Shown: positions 15,438 through 48,058 of the stretch, in pieces | How the letters are laid out: each line of letters starts with the position of its first letter | Numbering within the stretch: the stretch's first letter is position 1 | Assembly (NCBI RefSeq): GCF_964355755.1 | Contig: NC_092672.1 | Location: 3,224,001 to 3,288,000, forward strand | Source of the DNA: Antedon mediterranea | Lineage: Eukaryota > Animalia > Echinodermata | Length of the DNA stretch: 64,000 nt | Direction: 5' to 3' | The notes under the pieces: model-generated | The model's input: only the letters and a program-made list of their open reading frames with translations | Databases searched by the model: none | Told to the model about the DNA's origin: nothing | Program-made: the position numbers and the translations under genes

Positions 15438-16589
15438 TCATCTGTAAGACTCGCCTCTGAAAGAAAAGTAACAAATTATTAAATTATTTTGTTTGATGAT
15501 CTTGTATATATATATATATATATATAAATATATTCTAATGCTTGGCAAAGGACCATCAAACAAAATAATTAATTAATTTATACCGTATATATATATACAA
15601 ATCTTTATATAATTTTCCACAATAATATTTACAGCAGAACAGAGGGTACATTATGCTATGCAACAACTGCAACAATATTAAGTATTTATATTAATAAACT
15701 TATACATATAAAATACAGTAGTAAAAAGCTATTCACATTTTTGAAACACTCTTGATAAAGATTAAAGTTCTGTCTACACTATCAAACTAGTTTGACAAAA
15801 AACTGTGATGTACACAAATATGGTAGTGATATGCCCAAATATGGTAGTGATATCATTGTGTCTATATTTGGGCACATCACATTTTTTGTCACATAAAGTT
15901 TGATAGTGTAGACAGAGCTTTATACATACTGTCAAAAATGCTATTCAAATTTTTGAACATTTATAAAGAAGTTTCCAAATACTTGATTTTAACTTACCTT
16001 GCAAATATAATCATGGCGATGAGGCTAAAAATGAATTCAAATGCAAGGAAAATAATTGGAATTATATTTAAAATGACCTCAACACGTAGCACGTATGGTT
16101 GCCATTTAAGGTAATACACATAAACAAAGATAAGTGAGTGAGTGGCCGAGCGGTTAAGACAGTGGAACCGTAATTACGTAGCCATAACATCGGCAGGGGT
16201 TCGAGGCTCACTCACTCCATGGTTCTGGTGGTAGAACGAGTCTTCTCGGATAAGGACTATAAACCGTAGGTCCAGTGTACACATCTAGCTCGTGTGCACT
16301 TTAAAGAACCTAGTACATCTTTCGAGACGAGTAGGGGGTTACCCCGGTGTATTAGTACATCACAGCCACTGATCACCAACTTACCTTCCAAATGTAATCA
16401 TGGCGATGAGGCTAAAAATGAATTCAAAATGCAAGGAAAATAATTGGAATTACATTTAAAAAGACCTCAACAAGTAGCACGTATGTTTGCCACTTAAGGT
16501 AATACACAAATAAACAAAGAAGACTGGTATGCATAACATCACTGATACACCAAGATAGGGTATCTTCTCTGTTAAATTTCCCTTTTTCC
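15438..16589 (-). pseudogene. TMEM216-like orphan exons: terminal exon (15456-15438, RGESYR*) and two copies of the 202-nt exon (15998-16130 truncated by SINE; 16385-16589 frameshifted)
   Basis: YYLKWQ(P/T)YVL(R/L)VE motif, conserved AG/GTAAGT donor; no upstream exons follow. Confidence 0.85.
16133..16380 (+). mobile_element. tRNA-derived SINE, 3'-truncated, interrupting a TMEM216-like exon
   Basis: Head GAGTGAGTGGCCGAGCGGTTAAG...GGTTCGAGGCTCACTCACTCCA (A box, B box, paired acceptor stem). Confidence 0.85.
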
Positions 16590-17995: not shown

Positions 17996-18357
17996 GCCCA
18001 ACTACAAAGTCGATCCTGCCAACATGAAAACCGTATGGCGTTGAAACGCGGAGTCGAGAGCAACAAACTAGTCCAGCCTAAACGGGTACTGGAGCTGATG
18101 CGGCTGCAAAGGCAAAGAAGGAAAAAGCTAAGAAGGCAGATAAGGAGAAGAAAGCAACAAAGACCAAAAAACCAACTGCAAAGAAACCAGCTGCAAAGAA
18201 GGCTACCAAGTCACATAAAAAGGCAAAGAAGTCGGAGAAAAAGAAGCCATCTTCTAAGCCTAAGAAGGCTAAATCTCCTGCAAAGAAACCAAAGACCAAG
18301 AAGCCGAAAACTAAAAAGGCTTCAAAACCACCAAAGAAGGCAGCTGCAAAGAAGTAA
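17996..18357 (+). pseudogene. Histone H1 pseudogene (partial globular domain + full Lys/Ala/Pro-rich C-tail), 5'-truncated, frameshifted
   Basis: NYKVDPANMK/RMALKRGVESNKLVQPK/GTGA then AAAKAKKEKAKK...KPPKKAAAKK* (TAA 18355-18357). Confidence 0.9.
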
Positions 18358-18381
18358 AACATTTACAACCAAAAACCAAAC

Positions 18382-18397
18382 GGCTCTTTCCAGAGCC
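18382..18397 (+). terminator. Replication-dependent histone mRNA 3' stem-loop
   Basis: AAC-GGCTCT TTCC AGAGCC-ACCA 24 nt after the H1 stop, followed by a purine-rich AGAGA element. Confidence 0.85.
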
Positions 18398-19640
18398 ACC
18401 AAAATATCCTAGAGATTTGATTGCTTTCACGTATAACCTAAATATTATGATATACACCACATTCTTTTAAATTAATTCATTTACGAAACAATACAAATAG
18501 TGCAATATTTTTTAATAATTTGCATTTAGAATTGCAAAGAAAAAGCTATTATACACGTGAACAGTTAATATGTATATAAAATATTATTCCTGATAATATG
18601 TAATTCAGTGCTGATGTAATTAAAACATTGCTTATCAAAGAAAATATACTTCGATGGTTGAAGGAGTTGGAAAATAATCAATTCATCTTTTATGATGTTT
18701 AATATCTTGATGCTTTGATTGAGTGCATGCCACTAATTAAATGCAACTGGTGTTGATTATCAATTAATCGATTTGCCCTCCTACGTTGATTTTAGGTTCG
18801 ATTGGATAGCTATTCAGTTCACCTTATATGCAGACGGGTATACAGTAATTTGATTGTAAATTACTGTATACATAAACGGTAGTCCTATATTTATTATAAT
18901 GTATAAATAATGCCCAGTTACAAATGTTTGAACCTTTGATTTCGACAAACGAAAAGTTAAATCTACTGAACTGAGCTGGAGGCTCAACCAATAATTTTAT
19001 CTATGACAATATAAAACAAACGACGATAAAGTGAGGCAACGTTGCACTTTCAAACTTTATTTGTTCATCTTCAGGAATGCATGACATGAAAAACCAACTT
19101 TTATTTCTCACAATAATACAAAAACAATTACTTTTATTGTTTACCATATAACATTATTAATAGGCACCACCAGCTTTTTTTTTACCCCAGTATTTTTAAG
19201 ATATTTAATAAGTGAATGTTTTGAGGTTTTTATTCATGTTTTTATAATTCATGGTACGATATTTAATTGTAATAGGATGTTTCTATTTTTATAGCAATTT
19301 TAACTAATTTTTACATATTTGTAATGCAATTCATTTCAGTCCATGACTGTCATTTTGTAATGTATTTTTAATATACCGAAAAAAAAATTAATAAATAAAT
19401 ATATCTAATACTGCATTCCTTTTTAAAATTTTAGGGGATTGATTTTCTCAAAAATTGTTTTTCATTCAACAATTTGTTTTATGAACATTTTACTCATTAA
19501 AGTTGGCAATACCATGTATCTTGTCTTCAGAAAACAATTCATTGATTCTCATCAGTAAGACTCGGCTCTGAAAGAAAAGTAACAAATTATTAAATTATTT
19601 TGTTTGATGGTCTTGCATATATATATAAATATATTCTAAT

Positions 19641-20927
19641 TCAATTAAATATCCCGCATCGACAATACTACGTCTCGCTGAACTTGTACTTAATACTACA
19701 GCCTTCAACTTCAATGGAAAGTTTTTTCGGCAAGTTTCTGGGATAAGCATGGGTACAAAAATGGGACCTAACTTTGCTTGCCTCTTTATGGGGTATTTTG
19801 AGCAGAATGTGTTACGAGATTATAAGGGAAAGAAACCAGATTTATTCAAACGGTATATTGATGATTGTGTTGGTGTTATGTCGGGAACTTTAGATGAACT
19901 TAATGAGTTCATTAACTTTGTGAACAATTTTCATCCTGCTATAAAGTTTACTCATGAAATTTCTGACAAGTGTGTGCCTTTCCTTGATATTAGTTTATCT
20001 ATTGATAAACCTGGTCTTTCTACATCCGTCCACTACAAAGATACTGACGCGCACACTTATCTAAATTACAACTCTTCGCATCCTCTAGCTTGTAAGAATG
20101 CTATACCGTATTCGCAACTTGTTAGACTTCGACGTTTATGTAGCGATGATGATGACTTTAACATCAAAGCATCTGAGATGATCGATTTTTTCAATGCACG
20201 CGAATATCCATCTGACATTACTGTGAAATCTCTAAGAAAAGTTTGCCAGTTAACGCACGAGGACACATTGCAACCTACACATAATACAAATGCTTGTGAC
20301 CGCATACCTCTAGTCCTCACGTATCATCCTATGAATAAGAAGGTTATTAACATTGTTCGCGATAACTTTTCAATTTTGACTGAAGATAAATCCGCTACAA
20401 AAGATATTTTTCAAGAACCACCCATGATAGCTTACAGACGTGATCAAAGCATTAAAGACACTTTAGTTAAATCTAAATTACAAAACAAAGGTAATGAATC
20501 AATTGGAACATTCAAATGTAATAGAAATAGATGTTCGACATGTAATTACGTTTCATGTTCAAACCAAATAGTAGGACCTTCTGGTAATTATGTGATCACA
20601 GATCGTATTACGTGCACCACTAGAAATCTAGTTTATTGTATTTCGTGTACTAAATGTAATATGCTTTATATTGGTGAAACTAAACGCAGGTTAGGTGATA
20701 GGTTTGTAGAACATTTAAGGTCTATTAAACTAAAGACTCCCGGATTACCTGTAGCCACCCATTTTTGTAATAATGAGCATTCCCTTTCGGATATTACTAT
20801 TTCTGGTGTTAAAGTATGTAATGGTTCTGAGACATCTCGTAGAATTATAGAAGAAAGAATAATTGTAAAGCTTGGCACTCTTGCCCCTACCGGCATAAAT
20901 GTACAATTTAGATCCTTTAAACATTAA
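19641..20927 (+). CDS. Penelope-like RT (C-terminal part) + Cys-rich linker + GIY-YIG endonuclease, open but lacking N-terminus
   Basis: Frame open from the insertion edge: FNGKFFRQVSGISMGTKMGP, RYIDD, FLDI, CNRNRCSTC, NLVYCISCTKCNMLYIGETKRRLGDRFVEH, LGTLAPTGIN. Confidence 0.92.
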   Translation, partial: SIKYPASTILRLAELVLNTTAFNFNGKFFRQVSGISMGTKMGPNFACLFMGYFEQNVLRDYKGKKPDLFKRYIDDCVGVMSGTLDELNEFINFVNNFHPAIKFTHEISDKCVPFLDISLSIDKPGLSTSVHYKDTDAHTYLNYNSSHPLACKNAIPYSQLVRLRRLCSDDDDFNIKASEMIDFFNAREYPSDITVKSLRKVCQLTHEDTLQPTHNTNACDRIPLVLTYHPMNKKVINIVRDNFSILTEDKSATKDIFQEPPMIAYRRDQSIKDTLVKSKLQNKGNESIGTFKCNRNRCSTCNYVSCSNQIVGPSGNYVITDRITCTTRNLVYCISCTKCNMLYIGETKRRLGDRFVEHLRSIKLKTPGLPVATHFCNNEHSLSDITISGVKVCNGSETSRRIIEERIIVKLGTLAPTGINVQFRSFKH

Positions 20928-21606: not shown

Positions 21607-21773
21607 CTTGCAAATGTAATCATGGCGATGAGGCTAAAAATTAATTCAAATGCAAGGAAAATAATTGGAATTACATTTAAAATCAGCTCAACACGTAGCA
21701 CGTATGGTTGCCATTTATATAAACAAAGAAGACTGGTACGCATAACGCCAATGATACACCAAGATGTGGTAGC
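21607..21773 (-). pseudogene. TMEM216-like orphan exon (internal deletion, 5'-truncated); its terminal exon is at 19567-19552
   Basis: Same sequence class as exon 25613-25412; the intervening intron hosts the Penelope-like insertion. Confidence 0.8.
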
Positions 21774-22520
21774 CTCTATAGCATGTCTGTCTAGGCTCTC
21801 AAGCCTGTCTGTCTAGCCTTTCTGTGTAGCCTCTATAGACTGTCTGTCTAGTCTGTCTGTCTAGCCTGTCTAGCATGTGTAGCCCCTCCCTCTAGCCTGT
21901 CTGTCTAGCCTGTCTGTCTAGCTTGTCTGTCTAGCCTGTCTGTCTAGCCTCTATAGCATGTCTGTCTAGGCTCTCTAGCCTGTCTGAACTGTCTAGACTG
22001 TCTGTCTGTCTGAACAGTCTAGACTGTCTGTCTGAACTGTCTAGCCTGTCTGTCTAGCCTGTCTGTCTAGCTTGTCTGTCTAGCCTGTCTGTCTAGCCTC
22101 TAAGCATGTCTGTCTAGGCTCTCTAGCCTGTCTGAACTGTCTGTCTGGCTATACTGTCTGTCTGTCTGAACTGTCTATCTGTCTAGACTGTCTGTCTGAA
22201 CTGTCTAGACTGTCTGTCTAGACTGTCAGTCTGAACTGTCTACTGTCTAGACTGTCTAGACTGTCTGTCTGTCTAGACTGTCTGTCTAGACTGTCTGTCT
22301 GTCTAGACTGTCTGTCTGTCTAGACTGTCTGTCTGTCTAGACTGGACTGTCTGTCTGTCTAGACTGTCTGTCTGTCTAGACTGTCTGTCTGAAATGTCTA
22401 GACTGTCTGTCTGTCTGTCAAGACAGACAGGCTAGACAGACAGGCTATACAGATAAACAGGCCAGACAGGCTAGAGAGACAGGCTAGAGAGACAAGATGG
22501 TACGCGAGCGAATCTAGTTT
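21770..22520. repeat. Complex GTCT/CTAG microsatellite with inverted (GACA) end, possibly a non-autonomous Helitron remnant
   Basis: (CTGTCTGTCTAGC/A)n for about 650 bp, strand switch near 22420, ends ...GCGAGCGAATCTAGT. Confidence 0.7.
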
Positions 22521-23952
22521 ATATATTATTAGCTTACTAAATAATTTATCAATAACACATAAATCAGTTTTACTGGGTAAAATGTTATTTGTTATTTAAA
22601 TATTTTTATATAGTTTATTTTATATCATTTTTGTTATTTTGGGAGTACGGAACCTGAACTCTCGTTATACTGATTAGGTTCACTTTTAGGTTCCTGCCTA
22701 CTCCCTTAGTTTCTGTGTTTTTGTTTGTTTGTAACTGGTTTTTGGCAATAAATAATAATAATAATAATAATAATAAAATACTGTTCAATTTTCTATAATC
22801 TAGGCCTATGCTCAATCTAACTTCGCGCGGGACTGAAAATTGGCCATCAAATAATGGAATGTCCCAGATATGCAATAAACCAATCAGATCACATGCAATT
22901 AGTGACGAATTGCATATTCGCCGTTTTTGAGGCGCGTAAACAGTGTGTGCGTTTTACTCACACGAAGTGACGAATCGATATTCGACGCTTCGTGTGACGA
23001 ATGATTATAATATCATAATATATTCGCCAAATTATAATTAAAATAATTAATTAATGAAATAAGATACGCAGTTGATATTTGCATCAATTGTTTTTTAGAA
23101 TAAATACTGACGCTTTTCCCTGGTTTTAATGATGTCTACAAGCAGTGCTATAAATCAAACATTTGTATTGAAAGGTGCATTGTACCTCAATTTTGCTGTA
23201 CTACCAGAGGAAATATTTTTATTTAAAATATCTGTATAAACCATAAGTTTCATACTGTGTAATACTGTATAAAAATAATGCAATATATTTGACAACAGAG
23301 AACAGTGTCGTCAGCATATTGTGGCATGTGGGATGAGATCATGGTAGAAAAATCAGCAACATACATATTAAAACTACTACTGCTGATGCTTTCTTAACAT
23401 TTACATCCTTTGTTTTCGCTGATATCCAGACTCTCAGAAAGGACTACTGAACTACTTACTTTGTCTCCATTCGCTTTCAGTTCTCACAAAATAAGTCCTA
23501 TTTGTAGTATCGTCAACGACACGTTGAGTATCATCAGTAATTTGCGGCGATTTACAATTATCCATTGTGATAATTCCAGCAGCGTCTCTGGCAACGGCAT
23601 TACATTCTCAGAAATAATCGTTTAAGCAGAGTAACTCAAGTTCTTTACCACATATTCCTTGATATCAATTGAACTATCAAAGGGTACCATTTCTATTACA
23701 AATTTTAAAAATATTGTTGCAGCTTATTCTTTGTGTATAGCAAATTTTCTGCAATAACATTTTAGATAGGCTACTGTACATACATCACTCTTTACTTGTT
23801 TAATTATTTTGATGTGATGGCCTTATGTACTTTTTTTCAGCAGTTTATATCAAAGCAGCCTGACGGATTTTACGAGTTATATTTTCATCGTTGTAACCAA
23901 TTCTCGTTTTGCTATATCATTCCAATTGTAACAAAGATATTAAAATAATAAC

Positions 23953-24249
23953 ACAAAATTAGGTTCAATCTCATCCTATTTATTTGTTATGAAGAGAGCA
24001 CCCGTCACTGAAAACAATATAATGAAATCAAATAAATTCATGTTCTACACAATTAAAAATTCACAGGTTTTAAACATTTAAATGTTTGTGCTATATACAA
24101 ACAAAATTAGGTTCAATCTCATCCTATTTATTTGTTATGAAGAGAGCACCCGTCACTGAAAACAATATAATGAAATCAAATAAATTCATGTTCTACACAA
24201 TTAAAAATTCACAGGTTTTAAACATTTAAATGTTTGTGCTATATACAAA
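23953..24249. repeat. 148-bp tandem duplication
   Basis: ACAAAATTAGGTTCAATC...CTATATACAA occurs twice; single in the other arm. Confidence 0.9.
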
Positions 24250-24690
24250 TCTATCACTCAACCCTATTATGAACAAAATACATTTTAAGCCATCAACATA
24301 CCAAACATAATTATACCCGGAAAATATTTAATATTAATAGATAATATTTAAATAAAGACATTTTTTGTACAACTAGCTCAAAACAGTAAAGTATTCCAAA
24401 CCTTTGTATACAACTGGGTACACTATCAAACGTGCCCAAATATGATAGGGGTATGCCCAAATATGGTCAATAAATGGGCACACATCACATTGTTTTTGTC
24501 ACATAAAGTTTGATAGTGTAGATAGAGCTTAAGGTAGACTAAAATAATACTGTGGAGTATTCTAATGATGAACTATTAATAATTATTAAGATAATGTAAC
24601 ATGAATGGTTGACAACTAATATTTGCTAAAAATAGGTGAGTTCCAGAAAGCTGAACTTGTTCTCTTCAAGTATCGTGCTCTTTTTTTCCT

Positions 24691-26679
24691 TCACGCTCTG
24701 AAAGAAAAGTAACAAATTATTTTGTTTGATGGTCTTGTGTATATATATATATACAGTATATATAAATATATTCTAATGCTTTGCAAAGGACCATCAAACA
24801 AAATAATTTAATAATTTATATATATACATATCAAGCAGACGGTCCGAGTTCGAGTCTCAGTTGGGGCGACTTTTTCCCATTCTCACAGATTTCCTCATCT
24901 TTATCGTTGCAAATTAATTAATTAAATTTCGGTATATCACCGGGCGGTTTAGAATTAATGTTCTTTGCCTATTGTGTTTATATATATATATATATACACA
25001 CAAATCTTTATATAATTTTCCACAATAATATTTCCAGCAGAACAGAGGGTACATTATGCAATGCAACAACTGCAACAATATTAAGTATTTATATTAATAA
25101 ACTTATACATATAAAAAACAGTAGTAAAATGCTATTCACATTTTTGGTCATTCATAAAGAAGTTTCCAAAGACTTGATTACAGCTCTGTCTACACTATCA
25201 AATTAGTTTGACAAAAAACTGTGATGTACACAAATATGGTAGTGATATGCTTAAATATGGTAGCAATATCATTGTGTCCATATTTGGGTACATCACAATT
25301 TTTTGTCACATAAAGTTTGACAGTGTAGACACAGAGCTTTATACATACAGTAAAATGCTATTCAAATTTTTGAACATTTATAAAGAAGTTTCCAAACACT
25401 TGATAACTTACATTGCAAATCTAATCATGGTGATGATGCTAAAAATGGATTCCAATGCAAGGAAAATAATTGGAATTACATTTAAAATGAGCTCAACACG
25501 TAGCACGTATGGTTGCCATTTAAGGTAATACATATAAACAAAGAAGACTGGTACGCATAACGCCAATGATACACCAAGATGCGGTAGCTTCTCTGTTAAA
25601 TTACCCTTTTTCCCTAAAATAAATGAAATATGTAAAGTGAATAAATTTGTTACTGGCATTCAATGCTTAATATGAACAAACATTGTAGACTTTTTTTATG
25701 AGGTATAATTTTCATTTTTTTTTCAGTTCTTAAACCATTTGGGAGAAAACAAATGTTAAAAATTTGATTAAAACTGTTAATTAATAGATTCGATTTGCTT
25801 ACCAATAAAAATTCTGACTGTTTCAACAGGTATTAATGCAAATAATAAAACAATGTCGCCTGCTAAATAGAAACCAGGGTAAGGAAATAGTGTGCCTACA
25901 GAACAAGTAATAAAAACAAACTGTTAAAATATACACTACTGTATAACATTAATTTGATACAAAAAATGGCACAGGCCTATGTTTGCAAGTTTGAGAGAAG
26001 AGATCATGATTTGAAAGATAAATTTGTGTAACAAACTCAAACAATATTATAATTATTGAATGTATCTACAATAGGCCTAGTTAGTTATAAAATGTTTCTC
26101 TTTTATACAGTGTATTCTAAATCAAAATTACTACACTACTCAATCATTTTTATTTATCAATTTAGTAAAAACGAGATATTTTACGTACCTTTAAATACAA
26201 ATATAAGAATTTCGCAAATCCAAAAGAATGCAAAATACCAACCATTGAAATACAAGAGTATTTGCAAAGGTAATGAAGAATTCTGTAATATGATTTGAGT
26301 TAAGTCTTCTTAAATGTCATTTATTATTTACGACACGTACTGTATATTTATTTATTGAACCTGTCAATTTAGCCTAAAGTTATTCATATTGGCCTTATTT
26401 TATTAATATTAATAGTTGGCATAGCAGGGAGATGTAAATAAATAAAATAAAGAATAAAACATAAAAAGCTCAAAACATTAATGGTTATTAATTTAAAAAT
26501 TAAATTTATTAAAAAAGGATACAGTCTGTGTTTTCTTCCCTAAATAAAAAAAAAACAATGTTTGTTAGTACATAAAACTAGGTTAGACATACAGTAGGCC
26601 TACTGTAGCTAGACTGGCTTAGCTATAGCTATAGGTCTCTTTGACCTCTACTAATACAAGGTACTGTTTTACAGTACAT
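24691..26679 (-). CDS. TMEM216: TMEM216/TMEM80-family ciliary transition-zone membrane protein, copy L (148 aa)
   Basis: Exons 26679-26646 (candidate first exon, weak donor GTCAAA), 26539-26523, 26282-26189, 25895-25803, 25613-25412, 24697-24691; in frame, no stops: ...GKKTQTNSSLPLQILLYFNGWYFAFFWICEILIFVFKGTLFPYPG...VETVRIFIGKKGNLTEK...YYLKWQPYVLRVE...RFAIA*. SSxPLxILxxxNGWY, KGNL and YYLxxQxYVLRxE are family motifs. Confidence 0.88.
24826..24980 (+). mobile_element. 5'-truncated tRNA-derived SINE inserted in a (TA)n tract
   Basis: CCGAGTTCGAGTCTC B-box hairpin, TA-repeat tail; absent from paralogous introns at 15.5, 21.3 and 47.1 kb; mirror copy at about 36730-36886. Confidence 0.65.
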
Positions 26680-28290
26680 CTACAGTTCCAATTCTGCGCT
26701 TTACACTTAAAAAGAAACAAATGCAATTTTGAGATATGATTTTGAATTCATTCCAAGACAAGGCATGAGTATCATGAAATATTTTTTTTAGGTAACATAG
26801 TAATGTACAAGTAAAATAATGAGAGGCAGTACGTATGATTCAATCTTGCAACAATATTGTACCAGTACACAAAACTAAAAAGACTAAATACATTGAAAGA
26901 AGAACAAGTCACTATTAAAAAGAAGTTATTTAAATACTGCTTGATTACATAACACAATATCTATTGAAATAAAAGAACAATTGAGCTAGTCTAAATAAGA
27001 ATGGGAAATTACTTGCTGGAATGCAAAAGGTTGGTAACACTCCTTTCTCTAAGGTTTAATCATTTCAATTACTGGGCAAATTTTACAAAATCTATTAAGC
27101 ATGTGATTGCCAGTCTATTTTTATATACAGTATTAAGTAGGCTAAGCAAATAATTAATTATTTTGTTTCAATGATATTGCTTTAAAATAAGACCAACCAG
27201 GGTTCCATTTTGGAACTACAGTACTGTACTGTAGATGTTTTCTCTGAAGTGATTTTGTGATGGTGGTCTCTGTCTGGGAAAGGAGAACTACAAACCCATA
27301 AACAAGCAAAACCTACCCTTTTGTGCCATCTCAAAGCCTTCAAAACCAATCGGAGGTTTTTGTCTACCTTTTATCTTATTTCTAAACAGTATCCTATGAT
27401 GCTAGCCAGTGAGTAAACGTAGTGTGACGACGATTAACACAGCGCGCAGCAGCTCATTAATTGACGTACGTACTTATACAGCCAATGCGGACGTAAATTG
27501 CGACTGCTGCATGCTGTAATTCAACAGCTGTTGCTGACCTGTGTTTAATTTTGGTGACAAATACAAAAATTGCGCTTTTTTGCTTGCTTTCTTTCTTTCT
27601 GTCAAATGTTATATAAACAATAAAAGCAATTGTTTTTGTATTATTGTGAGAAATAAAAGTTTGTTTTTCATGTCATGCATTCCTGAAGATGAACAAATAA
27701 AGTTCGAAAGTGAATTTAGGCCTATAACATGTGCAACATTGCCTTGCCTCACTTTATCGTCGTTTGTTTTTCATTCAGTTCAGTAGATTTCGTTTGTCGA
27801 AATCAAAGGTTCAAACATTTGTAACTGGGCATTATTTATAAATTGTAATAAATATACAATCAAATTATAAGGTGAAGTGAATAGCTATCAAATCGAACCT
27901 AAAAACAACGTAGGAGGACAAATCGATTAATTGATAATCAACACCAGTTGCATTTAATTAGTGGCATGCACTCAATCAAAGCATCAAGATATTAAACATA
28001 ATAAAAGATGAATTGATTATTTTCCAACTCCTTCAACCATCGAAGTATATTTTCTTTGATGTTTTAATTACATCAGCACTGAATTACATATTATCATGAA
28101 TCATCTTTGACTGTTGACATATTAACTGTTCACGTGTATTTTTCTTTGCAATTTTAAATGCAAATTATTAAAAAATATTGCACTATTTGTAGTGTTTCGT
28201 AAATGAATTAATTTAAACGAATGTGGTGGTGTATATCATAATATTTAGGTTATACGTGAAAGCAATCAAATCTCTTTAGGATATTTTGGT

Positions 28291-28472
28291 GGCTCTGGAA
28301 AGAGCTGTTTGGTTTTTCGTAAATGTTTTACTTCTTTGCAGCTGCCTTCTTTGGTGGTTTTGAAACCTTTTTAGCTTTCGGCTTTTTGGGCTTCTTGCTG
28401 TCGAAATCATGTCGATGTAAGTGAGCAGCAGGCTTTTGCTGCAGCCTTCTTAGTTTTAGTTTTGTCAGCCAT
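28291..28472 (-). pseudogene. Histone H1 derivative lacking the globular domain, frameshifted (early TGA), with 3' stem-loop
   Basis: ATG 28472 MADKTKTKKAAAK/PAAH.., tail KPPKKAAAKK* (28330-28328), stem-loop 28306-28291; promoter-proximal about 115 bp tandemly duplicated at 28523-28738. Confidence 0.88.
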
Positions 28473-29216
28473 CTTAGATAAGTAACACCCTTGAGCACGG
28501 ATCAAATAGCAGGTTAAAATAAGATAAAAGTCTAAAATTGAAAGCTAGCTATATTGATGTTGCGGACCTATACTAAAGCAACTATGTTGTTTCCCAGACC
28601 GCCTTTTTGTGTTGGAATGTTTAATTATGATAAATATGATAAAGTCCAAAATTGAAAGCTAGCATATTGATGTTGCGGACCTATATTAAAGCAACCGTGT
28701 TGTTTCCCAGACCGCCTTTTTGTGTTGGAATGTTTAAAATTATTTTTACAAAAATTGTGTTTGTTATTGGCTAAGAATTGTTGCTAAAACAATCTTATTC
28801 AGTTGACAACCAACAGTGATGAAACCGCCACTAACAGGTTGAATCTAAACATAATAAACTGTAAAGATACATTCAAATAAGCAACAATAACATAACAAAA
28901 ATCGCAACATTATAGAGATTTAACAATTTTACCCTTAAATGCATTATACATGTAAACTATCATAAAATAAATCAATATCCAAACAAGTAACCTATTACAT
29001 GTGTTAGGTAATCCCTGAAAATACCTAGTTTTGTGCATTCAACACGACCACAAGGAACGTGAAGCAAACACTTGCTGCGAGCAAGAGGACAATCATAAAC
29101 AGAATTGAATGAGTTGTATAAAAAATCAAAATAATCATATAAATACGCTGAGATTGTGTACAAGAAATTGAATTAAAAATGACTGAACAGTATTCCAGGT
29201 GGGGCGCACGACTGAA

Positions 29217-30296
29217 GGGTGTCACGAAAGCTCAGACCACGAAAGCTCAGACCCCCTAAGAATTAAGATCACGAAAGCTAAGACCCAACACCTAAGATTA
29301 CAAATACTAAGATATACTACAGCTTAAAAACAATACTTGTTTATCCATACATAATTTTAAACACAGTAGGTTTCATTTATTACCATAAATATAATTTAAT
29401 ACTACCGCAAAACATAGATAAACTCACATTATTTTCGCCCGTTGAGTAAATGTATATTTTTTCTTTACAACAAACAAACTTGACGGGTTGTTTGTTGGTA
29501 TATATTTACTCCATTGTGTTGCTTCAGAGGATGTTTTTCTTACGCACCTGCCTTTCTTGTATTTTGACTCCAAATTTGTTGACTAACTTTATCCTGAACA
29601 CCACACTTTAAAATTAGGACTTATAAGTACTTTCAGAAGGAGAAACACATAATAACAAATAAATAAATCCTTTAAATTGATGATTTTACAGATGTGTTTC
29701 TTTGTATACTGTGATGACAATGTAACTCCTCGAGCTCCCCATGCTCAATGTTTTTGTTTCTATGGAGCGCCAAAAGAGCAACAATAATAGTACAAGTATA
29801 AAAACAGAAAGAAAACGAAACAAAAAAACTTATCATGATTTTTAAATTAAAATTTAATTGCCAGTATTTATTTCTTCGTACTTGCATGATTATACTATTA
29901 TCATTACAATTTTACATTGTTCCATCCACACTGTAGATGGACTCCACAGAGTTTTCAGCCCTCTATATAATTTTTGCTCTTTTGACGTTCCATAGAAACA
30001 AAAACATTGAACATGGCCCATGGGGTAGGCCTACTGTACTGTAGGCTAGTCATTTTGTGTGCGAGAAAAACGTCTGTAAAATCATCAATTTAAAAATGTA
30101 TTTGTTACTTTTTATGTGATTCTTTTTCATGAAAGTGCCAATTCTAAGGTGTGGTATTCAGAATAAATGTTGGGAGTTAAAATACAAGGCAGGTGCGAAA
30201 GATAAATATTGGTAATCTTAGGTGTTGGGTCTTAGCTTTCGTAATCTTAGGTCTTAGGGGGTCTGAGCTTTCGTGGTCTGAGCTTTCGTGACACCC
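29217..30296. mobile_element. Non-autonomous TIR element (MULE-like), copy 1
   Basis: About 90-bp TIRs GGGTGTCACGAAAGCTCAGACC...; 10-bp TSD CACGACTGAA (29207-29216; repeated at 30302-30311 after 5 extra nt); empty site in the other arm at about 32665-32685. Confidence 0.88.
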
Positions 30297-30523
30297 CACG
30301 ACACGACTGAACGGTACAATGATGTTAATGCTCCACCATTGCCCATGAATCTACAGTTCCTGTAAATTTCTAAGAGTTGCAAATGAATTGCCGATTTTAA
30401 CCTGAAAAATAAATGTTTGGTCCCTGCATTCAACATGATATTGACGCGTCTCACAGCGAGCTGGGGGACGAACGATTCGTACAAAGGAAAGGACACCGCC
30501 AGACAACTGCGTACCAATTGTTT

Positions 30524-31608
30524 GGGTGTCACGAAAACTCAGACCACGAAAGCTCAGACCCCCTAAGACCTAAGATCACGAAAGCTAAGACCCAACACCT
30601 AAGATTACAAATATTTATCTTTCGCACCTGCCTTGTATTTTAACTCCTAACATTTATTCTGAATACCACACCTTAGAATTGGCACTTTCATGAAAAAGAA
30701 TCACCGTATAAAAAGTAACAAATACATTTTTAAATTGATGATTTTACAGACGTTTTTCTCGCACACAAAATGACTAGCCTACAGTACAGTAGGCCTACCC
30801 CATGGGCCATGTTCAATGTTTTTGTTTCTATGGAACGTCAAAAGAGCAAAAATTATATAGAGGGCTGAAAACTCTGTGGAGTCCATCTACAGTGTGGATG
30901 GAACAATGTAAAATTAAAATTGTAATGATAATAGTATAATCATGCAAGTACGAAGAAATAAATACTGGCAAATAAATTTTAATTTAAAAATCATGATAAG
31001 TTTTTTTGTTTCGTTTTCTTTCTGTTTTTATACTTGTACTATTATTGTTGCTCTTTTGGCGCTCCATAGAAACAAAAACATTGAGCATGGGGAGCTCGAG
31101 GAGTTACATTACAGTATACAAAGAAACACATCTGTAAAATCATCAATTTAAAGGATTTATTTATTTGTTATTATGTGTTTCTCCTTCTGAAAGTACTTAT
31201 AAGTCCTAATTTTAATGTGTGGTGTTCAGGATAAAGTTAGTCAACAAATTTGGAGTCAAAATACAAGAAAGGCAGGTGCGTAAGAAAAACATCCTCTGAA
31301 CCAACACAATGGAGTAAATATATACCAACAAACAACCCGTCAAGTTTGTTTGTTGTAAAGAAAAAATATACATTTACTCAACGGGCGAAAATAATGTGAG
31401 TTTATCTATGTTTTGCGGTAGTATTAAATTATATTTATGGTAATAAATGAAACCTACACTGTGTTTAAAATTATGTATGGAAAAACAAGTATTGTTTTTA
31501 AGCTGTAGTATATCTTAGTATTTGTAATCTTAGGTGTTGGGTCTTAGCTTTCGTGATCTTAGGTCTTAGGGGGTCTGAGCTTTCGTGGTCTGAGCTTTCG
31601 TGACACCC
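30524..31608. mobile_element. Non-autonomous TIR element (MULE-like), copy 2, inverted relative to copy 1
   Basis: Same TIRs; 10-bp TSD CCAATTGTTT (30514-30523, 31609-31618); near-identical internal sequence in opposite orientation. Confidence 0.9.
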
Positions 31609-32121
31609 CCAATTGTTTAGATCACTGGCAGTCAGGCAGCATGCATAAAGTATATAGCCTTCCGACATACATCAGTATTTATGTGTGGCTATGAAGTATA
31701 ATGTATCATAGAGGATTATAGTGAATATTAATATTTTACACTATAATATCTATGGTATCATGTACTGTAGTTCACATTATGGCATCCGATTATTTTTCTC
31801 CTAGACGTACGTTCGCATTGAACTTGAACGCAAAACAAAATATCGAGTAAAATGATCTAACAATCGGCGGTTCCGCACAGAGCACGCGCATCTAACATAC
31901 GGCAACAAAAATGTTATCGTTTAAATAGTCCACGAGTCCAAGTACGATCGTTTTGCTCATTGGTAGCATGCTGCATGAGAGTGTCTTTTCCGGCCATATC
32001 TAAGGGTGTCATTTAACAAAATTTGCTTCGCCTCAGGCCCCACCCCAGGGGGGGGTAGGTATGGGGGTGGGGTGACCCAAATACTTAGTGTGCGAACCCC
32101 CCCTTGACAGATCCTGGCTCC

Positions 32122-32710
32122 ATAACAAACCCAGCATTCTATTTTCCTTAGATACAACATAATTAATATGCAAACAAAAATTTAACTTACTATCAATTAA
32201 AACTCCTAAACCTCGCATTGCTTCATTCTACAGCGTACAATGCTTTGAATAGTAAGAAGCAATGCGATGTGGTCTACACTGACTCGGTTCCTCGTGATTT
32301 ACTTGTTTTTAAGATTGGTTTGAAAGGGAATCTTCTTAAATGGTTTTCAGATTATTTGTGGCTCCCTGTACTTTCTGGGGTTCTGCAGGGGTCAATTATT
32401 GGTCCCTTGCTTTTTAATTTGTATCTTAATGACCTTCCTTCTGTTTTTAAGTTTTCACAATCACTTCTGTTTGCTGATTAGGCCTACCTTAAGTTGTTTA
32501 AAGTAATCTCTTCACCTGACGACGCTCTTCTGCTGCAAGAAGATATGAATTCTCTTGTGGGATGGACTGAAAACAAAGCCTATTTTAACCAAATATTTGA
32601 ATGATCAGGAATTAGATTGTGTTAATTTTCAAAGGGATTTAGGAGTTTTAATTGATAATAAGTTGTACCGTTCAGTCGTGCGACCCACCTGGAATACTGT
32701 TAGTCATTTA
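32122..32710. mobile_element. Decayed CR1/L2-group LINE RT remnant forming the axis of the inverted duplication
   Basis: Plus strand: SGVLQGSIIGPLLFNLYLNDL...LFAD, RDLGVLIDNK, YRSVVRPTWN; minus strand 32218-32122: RGLGVLIDSKLNFCLHINYVVSKENRMLGL, continuing at 30367-30302 (IYRNC..ALTSLYRSVV) and 29210-29140 (PHLEYCSVIF). Confidence 0.8.
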
Positions 32711-32944
32711 TAAGACATGTAATAGGTTACTTGTTACCTGTTTGGATATTGATTTATTTTATGATAGTTTAAATGTATTTAAGGGTAAAATTGTTAAATC
32801 TTTATAATGTTGCGATTTTTGTTTGTTATTGTTGCTTATTTGAACGTATCTTTATAGTTTATTATGTTTAGATTCAACCTGTTAGTGGCGGTTTCATCAA
32901 TGTTGGTTTTCAACTGAATAATATTGTTTTAGCCACAATATTAA

Positions 32945-33060
32945 GCCAATCAAACACAATTTTCATTGTTAAGAATCATTTTAAACAATCCAACACAAAA
33001 AAGGCGGTATGGGAAACAACACGGTTGCTTTAGTATAGGTCCGCAACATCAATAGAGCTA
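32945..33060 (+). promoter_or_regulatory. Histone H1-type promoter elements
   Basis: CCAAT (32946), H1 box AAACACA (32952-32958), GC-box-like AGGCGG (33002), upstream of the H1 ATG at 33132. Confidence 0.5.
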
Positions 33061-33131
33061 GCTTTCAATTTTGGACTTATCATATTTTAACCTGCTATTT
33101 GATTCGTGCTCAAGGGTGTTACTTATCTAAG

Positions 33132-33278
33132 ATGGCTGACAAAACTAAAACTAAGAAGGCTGCAGCAAAAGCCTGCTGCTCACCCAACTTACATCGACAG
33201 CAAGAAGCCCAAAAGCCCAAAAAGCCGAAAGCTAAAAAGGCTTCAAAACCACCAAAGAAGGCAGCTGCAAAGAAGTAA
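33132..33278 (+). pseudogene. Histone H1 derivative lacking the globular domain; open 48-aa frame from native ATG to native stop
   Basis: MADKTKTKKAAAKACCSPNLHRQQEAQKPKKPKAKKASKPPKKAAAKK*; stem-loop at 33303-33320 has a 6-nt loop. Confidence 0.8.
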
Positions 33279-35023
33279 AACATTTACGACCAAAAACCAA
33301 ACGGCTCTCTTTCCAGAGCCACCAAAATATCCTAAAGAGATTTGATTGCTTTCACTTATAACCTAAATATTATGATATACACCACATTCTTTTAAATTAA
33401 TTCATTTACGAAACAATACAAATAGTGCAATATTTTTTAATAATTTGCTTTTGTTTCAAAATTGCAAAGAAAAAGGTATTATACACGTGAACAGTTAATA
33501 TGTATATCAAAGATTATTCCTGATAATATGTAATTCAGTGCTGATGTAATTAAAACATTGCTTATCAAAGAAAATATACTTCGATGGTTGAAGGAGTTGG
33601 AAAATAATCAATTCATCTTTTATGATGTTTAATATCTTGATGCTTTGATTGAGTGCATGCCACTAATTAAATGCAACTGGTGTTGATTATCAATTAATCG
33701 ATTTGCCCTCCTACGTTGTTTTTAGGTTCGATTCACTTCACCTTATAATTTGATTGTATATGTATTACAACTTATAAATGTGCCCAGTTACAAATGTTTG
33801 AACCTTTGAATTCGACATACGAAATCTACTGAACTTAATGAAAAACAAACGACGATAAAGTGATCAGGCAACTTTGCACATGTTATAATTCACTTTCGAA
33901 CTTTATTTGTTCATCTTCAGGAATGCATGACATGAAAAACTAACTTTTATTTCTCACAATAATACAAAAACAATTGCTTTTATTGTTTACCATATAACAT
34001 TTGACTGAAAGAAAGAAAGCAAGAAAAAAAGCGCAATTTTTGTATTTGTCACCAAAATTAAACACAGGTCAGCAACAGCTGTTGCATTACAGCATGCAGC
34101 AGTCGGAATTTACGTCCGCATTGGCTGTATAAGTACGTACGTCAATTTTAGAAACTTAACAATGAGCTGATCGTCGTCATTCCGTTTACTCACTGGCTAA
34201 CATCATAGGATACTGTTTGTGTCTAGAAATAAGATAAAAGGTAGACAAAAAAGGCAGAAGCTCCTCCGATTGGTTTTGAAGGCTTTGAGATGGGACAAAA
34301 GGGTAGGTTTTGCTTGTTTATGGGTTTGTAGTTCTCCATTCCCAGACAGAGACCACCATCACAAGATCACTTCAGAGAAACATCTACAGTACAGGGGTAG
34401 CCCAGTACAGTACTGTAGTTCCAAAATGGAACCCTGGTTGGTCTTATTTTTAAAGCAATGTTTAGATATTATAGAAACAAAATAATTATTTATTTGCTTA
34501 CGTCTTACTGTATATAAAAATGTCTTAATTTTCTACAGGTATGTTAATATTATTTGTTAATAATTGCATGAATAGCAGAGACTGGCAATCACATGCTTAA
34601 TAGATTTTGTAAAATTTGCCCAGTAATTGAAATGATTAAACCTTAGAGAAAGGAGTGTTAACAACCTTTTGCATTCCAGCAAGTAATTTCCCATTCTTAT
34701 TTAAGACTAGCTCAATTGTTCTTTTATTTCAATGGATATTGTGTTATGTAATCAAGCACTATTTAAATACCTTCTTTTTAAAAGTGACTTGTTGTTCTTT
34801 CAATGTATTTAGTTTTGTGTACTGGTACAATATTGTTGCAAGATTGAATCATGCGTACTGCCTCTCATTATTTTACTTGTACATTACTTATGTTACCTAA
34901 AAATATATGTCATGATACTCATGCCTTGTCTTGGACTGAATTCAAAATCATATTTCAAAATTGCATTTGTTTCATTTTAAGTGTAAAGCGCAGAATTGGC
35001 TGTTTTAGAGGAACTGTACGTAG

Positions 35024-36943
35024 ATGTACTGTAAAACAGTACCTTGTATTAGTAGAGGTCAAAGAGACCTATAATATTCCCATCTATAGCTAAGCCAGTC
35101 TAGCTACAGTAGGTCTATGCCTAACCTAGTTTTATGTACTAACAAACATTGTTTTTTTTTTTTTAGGGACACAGATTGTATCCTTTTTTAATAAATTTAA
35201 TTGTTAAATTAATACCCATTAATGTTTTGAGCTTTTTATGTTTGTTTTATTCTTTATTTTATTTATTTACATCTCCCTGCTAGGCCAAATATTAATAGTA
35301 ATAACATAAGGCCAATAATAATAACTTTAGGCTAAATAGACAGGTTCAATAAATAAATATACAGTACCTTTTGTAAATATTAATGACATTTGAAGACTTA
35401 ACTCAAATCATATTACAGAATTCTTCATTACCTTTGCAAATACTCTTGTATTTTAATGGTTGGTATTTTGCATTCTTTTGGATTTGCGAAATTCTTATAT
35501 TTGTATTTAAAGGTACGTAAAACATCTCATTTTTACTAAATTGATAAATAAAAATGATTGAGTAGTGTAGTAATTTTGATTTAGAGTACACCGTATAAAA
35601 GAGAAACATTTTATATATAACTAGGCCTATTGTAGATACATTCAATATAATTATAATATTGTTTGAGTTTGTAACTCAAATTTATCTTTCAAATCATGAT
35701 CTCTTCTCTCAATTCATCCAAACTTGCAAACATAGGCTTGTGCCATTTTTTGTATCAAATTAATTTCATACAGTAGTCTATATTTTAACAGTTTATTTTT
35801 ATTACTTGTTCTGTAGGCAATGTACTTCCTTTCCCTGGTTCCAGCTTAGCAAACGAAATTGTTTTATTATTTATATTATTAGCTGTTGAAACAGTCAGAA
35901 TTTGTATTGGTAAGCAAATCAAATCTATTAATTAATTAATACAGTTTTAATTATACTTTAAACATTTGTTTTCTCCAAATCGATTTAAGAACTGGAAAAA
36001 AAAATGAAAATTATACCTCATAAAAAGTCTGCAATATTTGTTCATACAGTATTAAGCATTGAATGCCAGTAACTTATTCACTTTACATATTTCAATTATT
36101 TTATTTTAGGGACAGAGGGTAATTTAACAGAGAAGATACCCTATCTTGGTGTATCAGTGATGTTATACATACCAGTCTTCTTTGTTTATTTGTATTACCT
36201 TAAGTGGCAAACATACGTGCTACTTGTTGAGGTCTTTTTAAATGTAATTCCAATTATTTTCCTTGCATTGGAATTCATTTTTAGCGTCATCGCCATGATT
36301 ACATTTGCAAGGTAAGTTATCAAGTATTCGGAAACTTCTTTATAAATGTTCAAAAATTTGAATAGCATTTGACTGTATGTACAGTATAAAGCTCTGTCTA
36401 CACTATTATTATGTGACAAAAAAATGTGATGTACCCAAATATGGACACAATGATATCGCTACCATATTTGGGCATATCACTACCATATTTGTGTACATCA
36501 CAGTTTTTTGTCAAACTAATTTGATAGTGTAGACAGCTGTAATCAAGTATTTGGAAACTTCTTTAAAAATGACCAAAAATGTGAATAACATTTTACTACT
36601 GCTTACATGTATAAACTTATTAATATAAATATTTAATATTGTTGCAGTTGTTACATAGCATAATGTACCCTCTGTTCTGCTGTAAATATTATTGTGGACA
36701 ATTATATAAAGATTTGTATATATATATATATATAAACACAACAGGCAAAGAACATTAATTCTAAACCGCCCGGTGATATACTGAAATTTAATTAATTAAT
36801 TTGCAACGATAAAGATGAGGAAATCTGTGAGAATGGGCAAAAGTCGCCCCAACCGAGACTCGAACTCGGACCGTCTGCTTGATATGTATATATATAAATT
36901 ATTAACAAACAAAATAATTTGTTACTTTTCTTTCAGAGCGTGA
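35024..36943 (+). CDS. TMEM216: TMEM216/TMEM80-family ciliary transition-zone membrane protein, copy R (146 aa)
   Basis: Exons 35024-35057 (candidate first exon), 35167-35177, 35419-35512, 35817-35909, 36110-36311, 36937-36943; 441 nt in frame: ...GTQINSSLPLQILLYFNGWYFAFFWICEILIFVFKGNVLPFPGSSLANEIV...GTEGNLTEKIPYL...YYLKWQTYVLLVE...ITFARA*. Confidence 0.88.
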
Positions 36944-38659
36944 AGGAAAAAAGAGCACGATACTTGAAGAGAACAAGTTCAGCTGTCTGGAACTCACCTA
37001 TTTTTAGCAAATATTAGTTGTCAACCATTCATGTTACATTATCTTAATAATTATTAATAGTTCATCATTAGAATACTCCACAGTATTATTTTAGTCTACC
37101 TTAAGCTCTATCTACACTATCAAACTTTATGTGACAAAAACAATGTGATGTGTGCCCATTTATGGACCATATTTGGGCACGTTTGATAGTGTAGACAGAG
37201 CTTAAGGTAGACTAAAATAATACTGTGGAGTATTCTAATGATGGGATGAACAGTTCTTGATTGTAAAGTTACTGTTTTGTGTGTACTGAATGAATTGTAG
37301 ATTATTTGTGCTAATTCATATACCGATAACGACGACAATATGAATCAATGGTATAAAAAGAAAAGGCGAGTGATACTACAGAAAATATTTTGGTTGTTTT
37401 GGCCCAGTTGTATACAAAAGTTTGGAATACTTTACTATTTTGAGCTAGTTGTAAAAAAAAATGTCTTTTTTTAAATATTACCTTTATTTTCCGGGTATAA
37501 TTGTGATTATTAATTTGACAGAGCAGTTCAGTTTGCTTAATGTATTTTCACACCGCACACAATTGTGAATATTTTGTGTTTCATAATGTTAATGCTAATA
37601 CTGTACATTAGTGTAAATTGATAGCATTGGTAGGATACTGCTTAGTGGGTGTGCATGTCAATAATATATATGTGATTTTTTAAATGTAAATTATAACCTA
37701 TTTCTTTAGTCTTGTGTGATAACTTAATTCCCATTCTTTAAACATATTTAAATACAATTTAAGTTTGATTGTCTTATTGGGAAATACCATTATTAATTTA
37801 TGTATGTTTGGTATGTTGATGGCTTAAAATGTATTTTGTTCATAATATGGTTGAGCGATAGATTTGTATATAGCACAAACATTTAAATGTTTAAAACCTG
37901 TGAATTTGTAAGAATTATTGTAAAACGTAAGAAGTGTGTAGAACATGAATTTATTTGATTTCATTATATTGTTTTCAGTGACGGGTGCTCTCTTCATAAC
38001 AAATAAATAGGATGAGATTGAACCTAATTTTGTGTTATTATTTTAATATCTTTGTTACAATTGGAATGATATAGCCAAACGAGAATTGTTACAACGATGA
38101 AAATATAACTCGTAAAATCCGTCAGGCTGCTTTGATATAAACTGCTGAAAAAAAGTACATAAGGCCCATCAAAATAATTAAAGAGTGATGTATGTACAGT
38201 AGCCTAAGAGTGATGTATGTACAGTAGCCTATCAAGAGTGATGTATGTACAGTAGCCTATCTAAAATGTTATCGCAGAACATTTGCTATACACAATAATA
38301 CAAAGAATAAACTGCAACAATATTTGTAATAGAAATGGTACCCTTTGATAGTTCAATCGATATCAAGGAATATGTGGTAAAGAACTTGAGTTACTCTGCT
38401 TAAACGATTATTTCTGAGAATGTAATGCCGTTGTTGCCAGAGACGCTGCTGGAATTATCACAATGGATAATTGTAAATCGCCGCAAATTACTGATGATAC
38501 TCAACGTGTCGTTGACGATACTACAAATACGACTTATTTTGTGAGAACTGAAAGCGAATGGAGACCAAGTAAGTAGTTCAGTAGTCCTTTCTGAGAGTCT
38601 GGATATCGGCGAAAACAAAGGATGTAAATGTTAAGAAAGCATCAGCAGTAGTAGTTTTA

Positions 38660-38962
38660 ATATGTATATTGCTGATCTTTCTACCATGATCTCATCCCAC
38701 ATGCCAAAATATGCTGACGACACTGTTCTCTATAGAGTAATAAAATCCCCAGTTGATTGTGACTTTTTACAGGCTGACCTCAACTCTATCATTAAATGGG
38801 GTGAAACAAATCATATGTCCCTCAATCCTGATAAATGTAAAGTCATGGAAATAACCCGCTCGAAAAACAACTCTTTCCAATATTTCATCCTAAATAATCA
38901 AATCAAAACGGTGTCCCACTATAAATACCTTGGAGTTACTTTAACGTCGGATTTATTATGGC
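38660..38962 (+). mobile_element. LINE RT fragment (YADD) at the junction between the inverted and direct duplications
   Basis: KYADDTVLYRVIKSPVDCDFLQADLNSIIKW...LNPDKCKVM...YKYLGVTLTSDLLW. Confidence 0.85.
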
Positions 38963-46975: not shown

Positions 46976-48058
46976 TCATCGGTAAGACTCTGCTCTGAAA
47001 GAAAAGTAACAAATTATTAAATTATTTTGTTTGATGATCTTGTTTATATATATATATAAATATATTCTAATGCTTTGCAAAGGACCATCAAACAAAATAA
47101 TTAAATAATTTATATTATATATATATATATATATACAAATCTTTATATAATTTTCCACAATAATATTTACAGCAGAACAGAGGGTACATTATGCAATGCA
47201 ACAACTGCAACAATATTAAGTATTTATATTAATAAACTTATACATATAAAAAACAGTAGTAAAATGCTATTCACATTTTTGATCAAACACTTGATTAAAG
47301 ATTAAAGTTCTGTCTAGACTATCAAACTAGTTTGACAAAAAACTGTGATGTACACAATATGGTTGTGATATGCCCAAATATATTATATCATTGTGTCCAT
47401 ATTTGGGCACATCACATTTTTTGTCACATAAAGTTTGATAGTGTAGACAGAGCTTTATACATACTGTCAAAAATGCTATTCAAATTTTTGAACATTTATA
47501 CTGTAAAGAAGTTTCCAAATACTTGATTTTAACTTACCTTGCAAATATAATCATGGCGATGAGGCTAAAAATGAATTCAAATGCAAGGAAAATAATTGGA
47601 ATTATATTTAAAATGAGCTCAACACGTAGCACGTATGGTTGCCATTTAAGGTAATACACATAAACAAAGATAAGAGTGAGTGAGTGGCCGAGCGGTTAAG
47701 ACAGTGGAACCGTAATTACGTAGCCATAACATCGGCAGGGGTTCGAGGCTCACTCACTCCATGGTTCTGGTGGTAGAACGAGTCTTCTCGGATAAGGACT
47801 ATAAACCGTAGGCCCAGTGTACACATCTAGCTCGTGTGCACTTTAAAGAACCTAGTACATCTTTCGAGACGAGTAGGGGGTTACCCCGGTGTATTAGTAC
47901 ATGACAGCCACTGATCACCAACTTACCTTGCAAATGTAATCATGGCGATGAGGCTAAAAATGAATTCACGTAATACATATAAACAAAGAAGACTGGTACG
48001 CATAACGCCAATGATACACCAAGATGCGGTAGCTTCTCTGTTAAATTACCCTTTTTCA
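46976..48058 (-). pseudogene. TMEM216-like orphan exons: terminal exon (46994-46976, RAESYR*), 47538-47670 (SINE-truncated) and 47927-48058 (internally deleted)
   Basis: KKGNLTEKLPHLGVSLALCVPVFFVYMYY in ORF 47940-48242; splice sites retained; upstream exons absent. Confidence 0.85.
47674..47922 (+). mobile_element. tRNA-derived SINE, duplicate of 16133-16380
   Basis: Near-identical sequence and same junctions. Confidence 0.85.

Follow-up and report, generated by a model that had tools for sequence, protein, structure and literature searches.

Can a core component of the ciliary transition zone be duplicated, kept intact and then driven apart by selection? The question is raised by a 64,000-nucleotide (nt) stretch of the crinoid Antedon mediterranea (RefSeq assembly GCF_964355755.1, contig NC_092672.1, positions 3,224,001 to 3,288,000), hereafter the window, which carries two TMEM216-like genes in opposite orientation, copy A and copy B. 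A first-pass annotation, made from the sequence alone, had taken them for two intact paralogs with an excess of amino-acid-changing differences, and proposed positive selection. The results below establish a dispersed duplication with altered gene ends and a second, inverted duplication; both resulting copies are intact and spliced, replacements are in excess on both of their branches, and the parent gene is frozen. Our favoured reading, held with moderate confidence, is that A and B are young spliced TMEM216 copies driven apart by positive selection into variant four-helix subunits, probably of the transition zone. Accelerated young duplicates are of a known kind; that a core transition-zone gene should behave in this way is the new, unusual part.

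Self-comparison of the window revealed a duplication-rich block from ~10.6 to 48.4 kb, in which A (minus strand) and B (plus strand) form the two arms of one inverted duplication. Each copy has six exons with GT..AG ends throughout, as originally described, and an open frame of 141 residues (A) or 139 residues (B). Arms and exons are as follows.

24454..29006, minus strand: left arm of the inverted duplication; homology also continues at 23297-24101
32711..37179, plus strand: right arm of the inverted duplication; homology also continues at 37863-38731
27317..27329, minus strand: copy A coding exon 1, 13 nt from ATG, in agreement with the N-terminus of RefSeq P0003
26523..26539, minus strand: copy A micro-exon 2, 17 nt, in agreement with P0003
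26189..26282, minus strand: copy A exon 3, 94 nt, encoding predicted helix 1, 0 replacements relative to B, joined to exon 4 in run X5
25803..25895, minus strand: copy A exon 4, 93 nt, encoding loop 1 and helix 2, with 17 nt that differ from B
25412..25613, minus strand: copy A exon 5, 202 nt, helices 3-4, X5 contig with 0 differences over 25458-25596
24691..24697, minus strand: copy A last coding exon, 7 nt including the stop
34290..34302, plus strand: candidate copy B coding exon 1, proposed by homology to A; RefSeq uses upstream H1-derived exons instead
35167..35177, plus strand: copy B micro-exon 2, 11 nt, with a 6-nt in-frame deletion; its residues are present in P0001
35419..35512, plus strand: copy B exon 3, 94 nt
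35817..35909, plus strand: copy B exon 4, 93 nt, linked with exons 3 and 5 in a B-type X5 contig
36110..36311, plus strand: copy B exon 5, 202 nt, matched by an X5 contig except at 1 of 157 nt
36937..36943, plus strand: copy B last coding exon, 7 nt including the stop

The model of copy A is the 141-amino-acid (aa) Antedon mediterranea RefSeq protein XP_071945218.1 (P0003), and that of copy B is XP_071944182.1 (P0001) from the micro-exon onward, the RefSeq start being different and rich in Lys and Ala; RefSeq annotates the copies as TMEM216-like. Neither frame contains a frameshift or a stop, so the two paralogs are indeed intact, but they are not the sole copies: the parent lies elsewhere, and the window also holds five exon-5 fragments and three parent-type last exons.

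The conserved parent copy, for which the annotation had suggested a search, was found on a different chromosome, as a 151-aa TMEM216 (XP_071943603.1, P0002) encoded on another chromosome-scale contig. The proposed TMEM216/TMEM80-like family proved right, with A, B and the parent all matching Transmemb_17 (PF09799) over positions 1-107 of 107 of the profile, at 111.7, 102.2 and 125.1 bits respectively (curated cut-off, 26 bits). A and B are 75-78% identical to the parent of their own species; each differs from it at 25 of 130 residues, whereas parent and Anneissia japonica differ at 13 of 130. In a tree of 22 rows, made without vertebrate TMEM216 as none surfaced in searches, A and B formed one clade (100/97), sister to the parent and then to Anneissia (99/97, 98/96), and apart from the TMEM80 clade; they group with invertebrate TMEM216-like proteins, not with TMEM80. 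The branch of the parent measured 0, those of the copies 0.19 and 0.15. Parent sequence was taken from protein records and from contig differences, and since such differences are hidden within ~31 nt of piece ends, 51 parent codons could be read at the nucleotide level. No further crinoid copy appeared among the 21 candidates of a homologue search, which is weak evidence; sequence, profile and fold searches of PDB found no relative, and a search of representatives gave 135 distant, uninformative matches (best, 55% identical).

Are the copies expressed? Contigs of A, B and the parent are all present in run X5, which comes from another sample and another study. Its library type is a guess; we took it as RNA because exons are joined at GT-AG sites. 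The A-type contig shows 0 differences across exon 4 and links this exon with exons 3 and 5 at CT..AC ends, and the B-type contig is likewise joined to exons 3 and 5 at the predicted GT-AG sites. Depth was 0-8 in intron bins and up to 326 in exon bins; contig depth neither ranks genes by expression nor gives copy number. Both copies are thus spliced at junctions 3-4 and 4-5, the extent of the X5 support, and each combines an intact frame with a spliced transcript, translation being predicted. Among the contigs listed, no B-type piece covers the H1-derived exons of the RefSeq B model and no A-type piece covers the five private changes at the end of A's exon 5. We draw no inference from either, as contigs drop short variants and uncovered parts may be lost bubbles or true polymorphism. 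In a second organism (runs X6 and X7), used to polarise a few sites only, one contig type was found over exons 3-5 among the pieces listed.

We then compared the two coding sequences. Thirty-five codons differ, 32 by replacement and 3 silently, in addition to a 6-nt in-frame indel. The silent count equals that first reported; the replacement count, given as 31, becomes 32 once exon 1, described as identical, is corrected for one Ala/Gly replacement. The micro-exon (1 substitution and the indel), the 94-nt exon (0 replacement, 1 silent) and the 202-nt exon (18 replacement, 2 silent) were as claimed. Within the 93-nt exon, 17 nt do differ in 12 codons, but they do not all cause replacements: once the parent is known, 2 of the 17 are silent third positions in multi-hit codons. 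Polarised with parent codons, the 41 nucleotide changes amount to 36 replacement (N) and 5 silent (S).

Between the two copies, 111 of 2091 aligned intron sites differ (5.3%), as do 5 of 97.5 silent sites (5.1%) and 36 of 319.5 replacement sites (11.3%). Replacements therefore ran at 2.2 times the intron rate, alike on both branches. Intron 3 (13/293, 4.4%) and intron 4, placed between the two fast exons (11/183), are not raised. A base-specific mutation matrix, built from 2003 intron columns, led to an expectation of 16.3 N and 5.5 S, to be compared with 36 and 5 observed. As the silent count matches the intron expectation, only replacements are in excess (Fisher test of N versus S, p=0.023; binomial test with the intron-derived matrix, p=0.036; N versus intron rate, p about 1e-4, precisely 8e-5). 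The pairwise dN/dS (omega) that the annotation had called for was above 1 between A and B: a GY94-type pairwise maximum-likelihood (ML) analysis gave 3.3-3.5 under three codon-frequency models (likelihood-ratio p 0.009-0.015), and 4.5-4.7 for exons 4-5 alone (p 0.003-0.005). The internal N:S test of exons 4-5 (34:4), which is independent of depth, gave p=0.018. The excess is modestly beyond chance. AT bias and CpG mutation were considered as its cause and rejected: 6 of the 41 exon differences lie in CpG context, and composition predicts 16.3 N.

The frames themselves have been preserved. At the intron rate, 4.2 frameshifts (27 indel events in 2003 sites) and 1.4 stops (from the matrix) were expected; A and B have none (p=0.004), and frame-disrupting indels are found in 3 of the 5 dead exon-5 fragments nearby. 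With the parent setting the polarity, 14 changes belong to A alone and 13 to B alone, a further 4 sites changed in both copies, and 9 changes are shared. The changes after separation split about evenly, 18 on A and 17 on B, and the parent branch is near zero. We also observed that five private replacements of A, with 0 silent changes, lie within ~38 nt at the end of exon 5 (25412-25449, minus strand): F134S, 138I, A140T, T143R and R146I, of which T143R adds a charge to predicted helix 4.

Where do the changes fall? The structure was predicted for A, with a mean confidence driven by the alignment (pLDDT 94.6), and is a four-helix membrane fold with helices at residues 14-44, 49-79, 82-104 and 111-140. 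A and B changes are spread over helices 2-4. The sole significant spatial feature is the lack of any A/B difference over the 32 residues 17-48, helix 1 (p=0.001). The clustering in the first extracellular loop that had been put forward was not significant once mapped on the predicted structure: the outer-face enrichment gave p=0.05-0.11 at three loop widths (11/30 versus 20/101, p=0.051, on an assumed topology), and the densest window of changes p=0.10. Changes tend to avoid conserved alignment columns (13/64, versus 25/66 of the others, p=0.034), so some sites are constrained and the remainder must evolve faster. The idea that the changes are more radical than those among orthologues was rejected, with BLOSUM means of 0.04 and 0.32 versus 0.10-0.69. 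Both copies keep E72, R75, G79, G82, N83 and L116, and the helix-2 E-x-x-R and G-N residues (E72, R75, G82, N83) are invariant in all 18 rows. The six kept residues match ciliopathy residues of human TMEM216 given in PMC12779253, a correspondence made by spacing and not by alignment of the human sequence.

Both ends of the copies are altered. A and B stop four residues before the parent, whose tail ends in ESYR, so that neither has a full parent-like C-terminal tail. Beyond its third base, their last exon is non-homologous to the parent-type last exon; a switch of last exon to unrelated sequence thus removed the parent's last four residues. The N-terminus of A and B also differs from that of the parent. 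Upstream of each copy, at the start of its arm, lies a remnant that we take to be histone H1-like from its composition, its stem-loop and characteristic motifs; orphan last exons of the parent type are found elsewhere in the block.

33132..33344, plus strand: H1-like remnant upstream of B, with an open 48-codon Lys/Ala-rich frame and a 3' stem-loop
28267..28472, minus strand: H1-like remnant upstream of A, with a stop at codon 22 and a weak stem-loop
46996-46979, ~15450 and ~19530, minus strand: orphan parent-type last exons, the one at ~19530 having a stop for its last residue

Scores against the histone stem-loop model RF00032 were 31.4 bits (B) and 24.4 bits (A), both below the cut-off of 34. 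In RefSeq's model of B, the remnant serves as first exon; this H1-derived start possibly reflects a chimeric gene, or else a prediction artefact. The remnants before A and B look like the start and tail of such a gene joined by an internal deletion. A longer, tail-only H1-like fragment, likewise with a 3' stem-loop, is present at 17995-18422 (plus strand), and the related tail at 18082-18354 had no Pfam match.

These data give the following history. The parent was copied to another chromosome, among histone H1 and exon-5 debris; the copy lost the parent's last four residues and came to carry a different N-terminus, and an inverted duplication then produced A and B. On our reading, selection, not loss of constraint alone, would have fixed many changes in helices 2-4 and the loops, with gene conversion between the arms and/or constraint holding exon 3 (helix 1) identical in protein. 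Such a mode of divergence would follow the divergence-peak model, as set out in PMC2588116. The A and B proteins presumably still fold and insert like TMEM216, and in some type of cell they may take the parent's place in the MKS module or compete with it there. The a priori candidates for such a site are the flagella of sperm or the ciliary bands of larvae.

Several observations weigh against this reading, and they concern first the statistics. The pair came to attention in a scan because it was extreme, and the p values are uncorrected for that choice. Only 5 silent changes are available, so that a count-based omega is 2.4 with a 95% confidence interval of 0.94-7.9, and the ML p weakens to 0.03-0.05 when codons 134-146 are left out. 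Secondly, each copy has lost residues that are invariant in 15 of 15 orthologues (E61D, T113P and R146I in A; K81E, R117L and I121F in B). Thirdly, the exon-5 fragments of the block bear on the ancestry of the two copies.

16385..16589, minus strand: dead exon-5 fragment that bears B-type alleles and insertions shifting the frame; a marker of conversion
15998..16130, minus strand: exon-5 fragment truncated at its 5' end; a parent-type last exon follows near 15.45 kb
21607..21777, minus strand: exon-5 fragment with a 10-nt deletion
47538..47670, minus strand: exon-5 fragment truncated at its 5' end; a parent-type last exon follows at 46996-46979
47927..48052, minus strand: exon-5 fragment that bears A-type alleles and has lost a large internal part

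The fragment ending at 16589 has the exon-5 alleles of B, and that ending at 48052, with the same downstream flank, has those of A; A also shares T113P, V120L and V95L with fragments and not with B, yet the intron-5 insertion and the new 3' end are common to A and B and absent from the fragments. Residues 47-101 contain none of the 9 replacements that A and B have in common (p=0.006). Together with the mosaic, this means that the split of exons 4-5 may predate the one that the introns indicate. The locus is thus a gene-conversion mosaic, by which the intron yardstick is weakened; the contrast first drawn between 18% in the 93-nt exon and ~5% in its intron is correct in its figures, but overstates the case because conversion is evident. 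Finally, the parent differs from each copy by 8 silent differences in ~38 silent sites (hand tally, 51 codons), and by at least 28/298 and 30/299 replacement sites (9.4-10%). Halved, the silent change is ~10% per lineage and equals the replacement change, hence an omega of about 1 from the parent split. For the 41 fully seen codons, omega was 6.4, 2.1 or 1.3 (p 0.024, 0.16, 0.42), according to how 4 unpolarised silent changes are assigned. The positive selection originally proposed therefore has an A-B omega above 1 on its side, and the value of about 1 from the parent split, along with the conversion, on the other.

These points are best gathered by a first alternative, relaxed constraint combined with conversion, which we judge a serious contender though somewhat improbable. 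It states that A and B are redundant, translatable and near an omega of 1, and that conversion from arm to arm reset the introns, exon 3 and part of exon 5; an older exon 4-5 tract would then mimic a selected peak, the shortage of silent changes being due to chance. The mosaic ancestry, the absence of shared replacements in residues 47-101, the equality of replacement and per-lineage silent change at ~10%, the lost invariant residues, the truncated C-terminus and a region full of duplication debris all speak in its favour, as does the frequency of conversion among young duplicates reported in PMC2588116. Against it stand the absence of frameshift or stop in A and B, and the tests restricted to exons 4-5 (p=0.018 whatever the depth, and 0.003-0.005 by ML). 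Moreover, N, S and intron 4 cannot all be fitted by any one older depth: at 13-17% depth, both the 4 silent changes and the 11/183 of intron 4 are too few. The tested depths were set with a parent-versus-B intron estimate of ~9-11%, obtained by subtraction from two short pieces, biased low and used for this purpose solely. The silent change at codon 96, common to A and B relative to the parent and to the second organism, indicates that the two copies have a common stem within the exon 4-5 tract. Over 310 sites of intron 5, every distance among A, B and two fragments lies between 4 and 6.5%. Lastly, conversion that spares the exons yet not the intron between them itself implies selection, according to PMC2588116.

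A more specific form of positive selection, in which A and B are cell-type-specific variants, possibly under a captured H1 promoter, that experience strong diversifying selection and form a second kind of gate for flagella or cilia, such as those of sperm in a broadcast spawner, seems unlikely to us. If true, the gate itself would be an arena of sexual or genetic conflict. We find it more doubtful still that conflict as such (gamete competition, drive and suppression, or a pathogen receptor) drove the divergence, and that the truncated copies, instead of being functional gate subunits, serve as decoys or antagonise the parent. The fast change is symmetric in both copies, both have lost a conserved C-terminal tail and the outer-face enrichment is borderline (p=0.051), but that enrichment is not significant at any of the three loop widths and relies on an assumed topology, the changes spread over helices 2-4, and the parent branch is unchanged although an arms race might drive the parent too. 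None of the tests made here favours gamete or pathogen conflict. Heterozygosity in some marine invertebrates approaches ~5%, and the region is repeat-rich, so A and B might be highly divergent haplotypes of one locus misassembled as a false inverted duplication; this is very improbable, since the window contains 0 N, the second sample, from another study, has both forms nearly unchanged, and in DNA run X1 the depth of B-specific contigs (10.6-15.2) is not below that of the parent-type contig (8.6), a weak hint.

The preferred reading, young spliced copies driven apart by positive selection, would imply, if selection is confirmed, that duplication can re-tune the ciliary gate for individual cell types, and would offer a tractable three-gene comparison. 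Two expressed natural variants, each bearing 25 substitutions and lacking the end of the tail, show which surfaces of the protein are free to change around a kept core.

Other features were noted in the window. The block contains a direct segmental duplication (12234-16426 and 43759-47968, 96.6% identical over 4.2 kb), which includes LINE-type reverse transcriptase remnants and exon-5 fragments, and a further duplicated pair (10.6-12.2 kb and 39.0-42.4 kb). Within the spacer between the arms (29217-31608), an inverted repeat of 1.09 kb (97.5% identity) flanks a 227-nt core and resembles a non-autonomous DNA element. A very high-copy, MITE-like family of hairpin repeats (36368-36536, 37093-37211, 25186-25326 and others) has enormous contig depth in all four runs; miRNA-like Rfam matches came from these hairpins, below cut-off, and were rejected. 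A degenerate short-unit tandem array with a palindromic end lies at 21765-22497, and a 53-bp tandem repeat at 62604-63048. Among neighbouring genes, exons of a coiled-coil and WD40 protein (WD40 by Pfam), resembling LIS1/PAFAH1B1, occupy 1479-4953 (plus strand). A 432-codon frame at 19629-20927 (plus strand), with weak RVT_1 and GIY-YIG matches, corresponds to a Penelope-like retroelement. Exons of a coiled-coil protein at 52087-54958 (plus strand) had a sole, weak match, to HAUS1 (E 0.0055), and a 517-codon single frame at 57728-59281 (minus strand) encodes three Ig domains, followed in this list by one predicted membrane segment and a tail that contains tyrosine, in what we take to be a nectin/CADM-like protein.

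How does the locus compare with known systems? Literature searches, in which subscription journals were thinly covered, found no report of TMEM216 duplication or selection in echinoderms. Loss of TMEM216 is lethal before adulthood in zebrafish (PMC9844136) and its missense changes cause Joubert and Meckel syndromes (PMC12779253). A and B resemble TMEM216/MKS2 (MKS-2) of the MKS module by their full-profile PF09799 matches (102-112 bits), their four predicted helices and the helix-2 residues kept; they depart from it in being part of a set of three copies instead of one, two of which are without the four C-terminal residues, have a new N-terminus and evolve fast. The vertebrate TMEM80 (and TMEM216) paralogues, 28-44% identical to B, are likewise duplicates inside one family, but the crinoid duplication is independent and far younger. 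Young chimeric or partial gene duplicates with recruited ends are exemplified by jingwei and Sdic. The likeness to that type lies in a dispersed partial duplicate with changed first and last exons, adjoining remnants of another gene and fast protein change, with the difference that use of an H1-derived exon or promoter belongs here to the RefSeq model only, for B. The closing comparison is with neofunctionalisation under interlocus gene conversion, namely the Teshima-Innan divergence peak and the Drosophila pair CG18281/CG17637, as presented in PMC2588116, where replacement-rich local divergence between homogenised flanks is likewise found in neighbouring duplicates. Unlike that pair, the silent sites and the intervening intron are not raised here, one species with both copies is compared, and a third, conserved copy keeps the old function.

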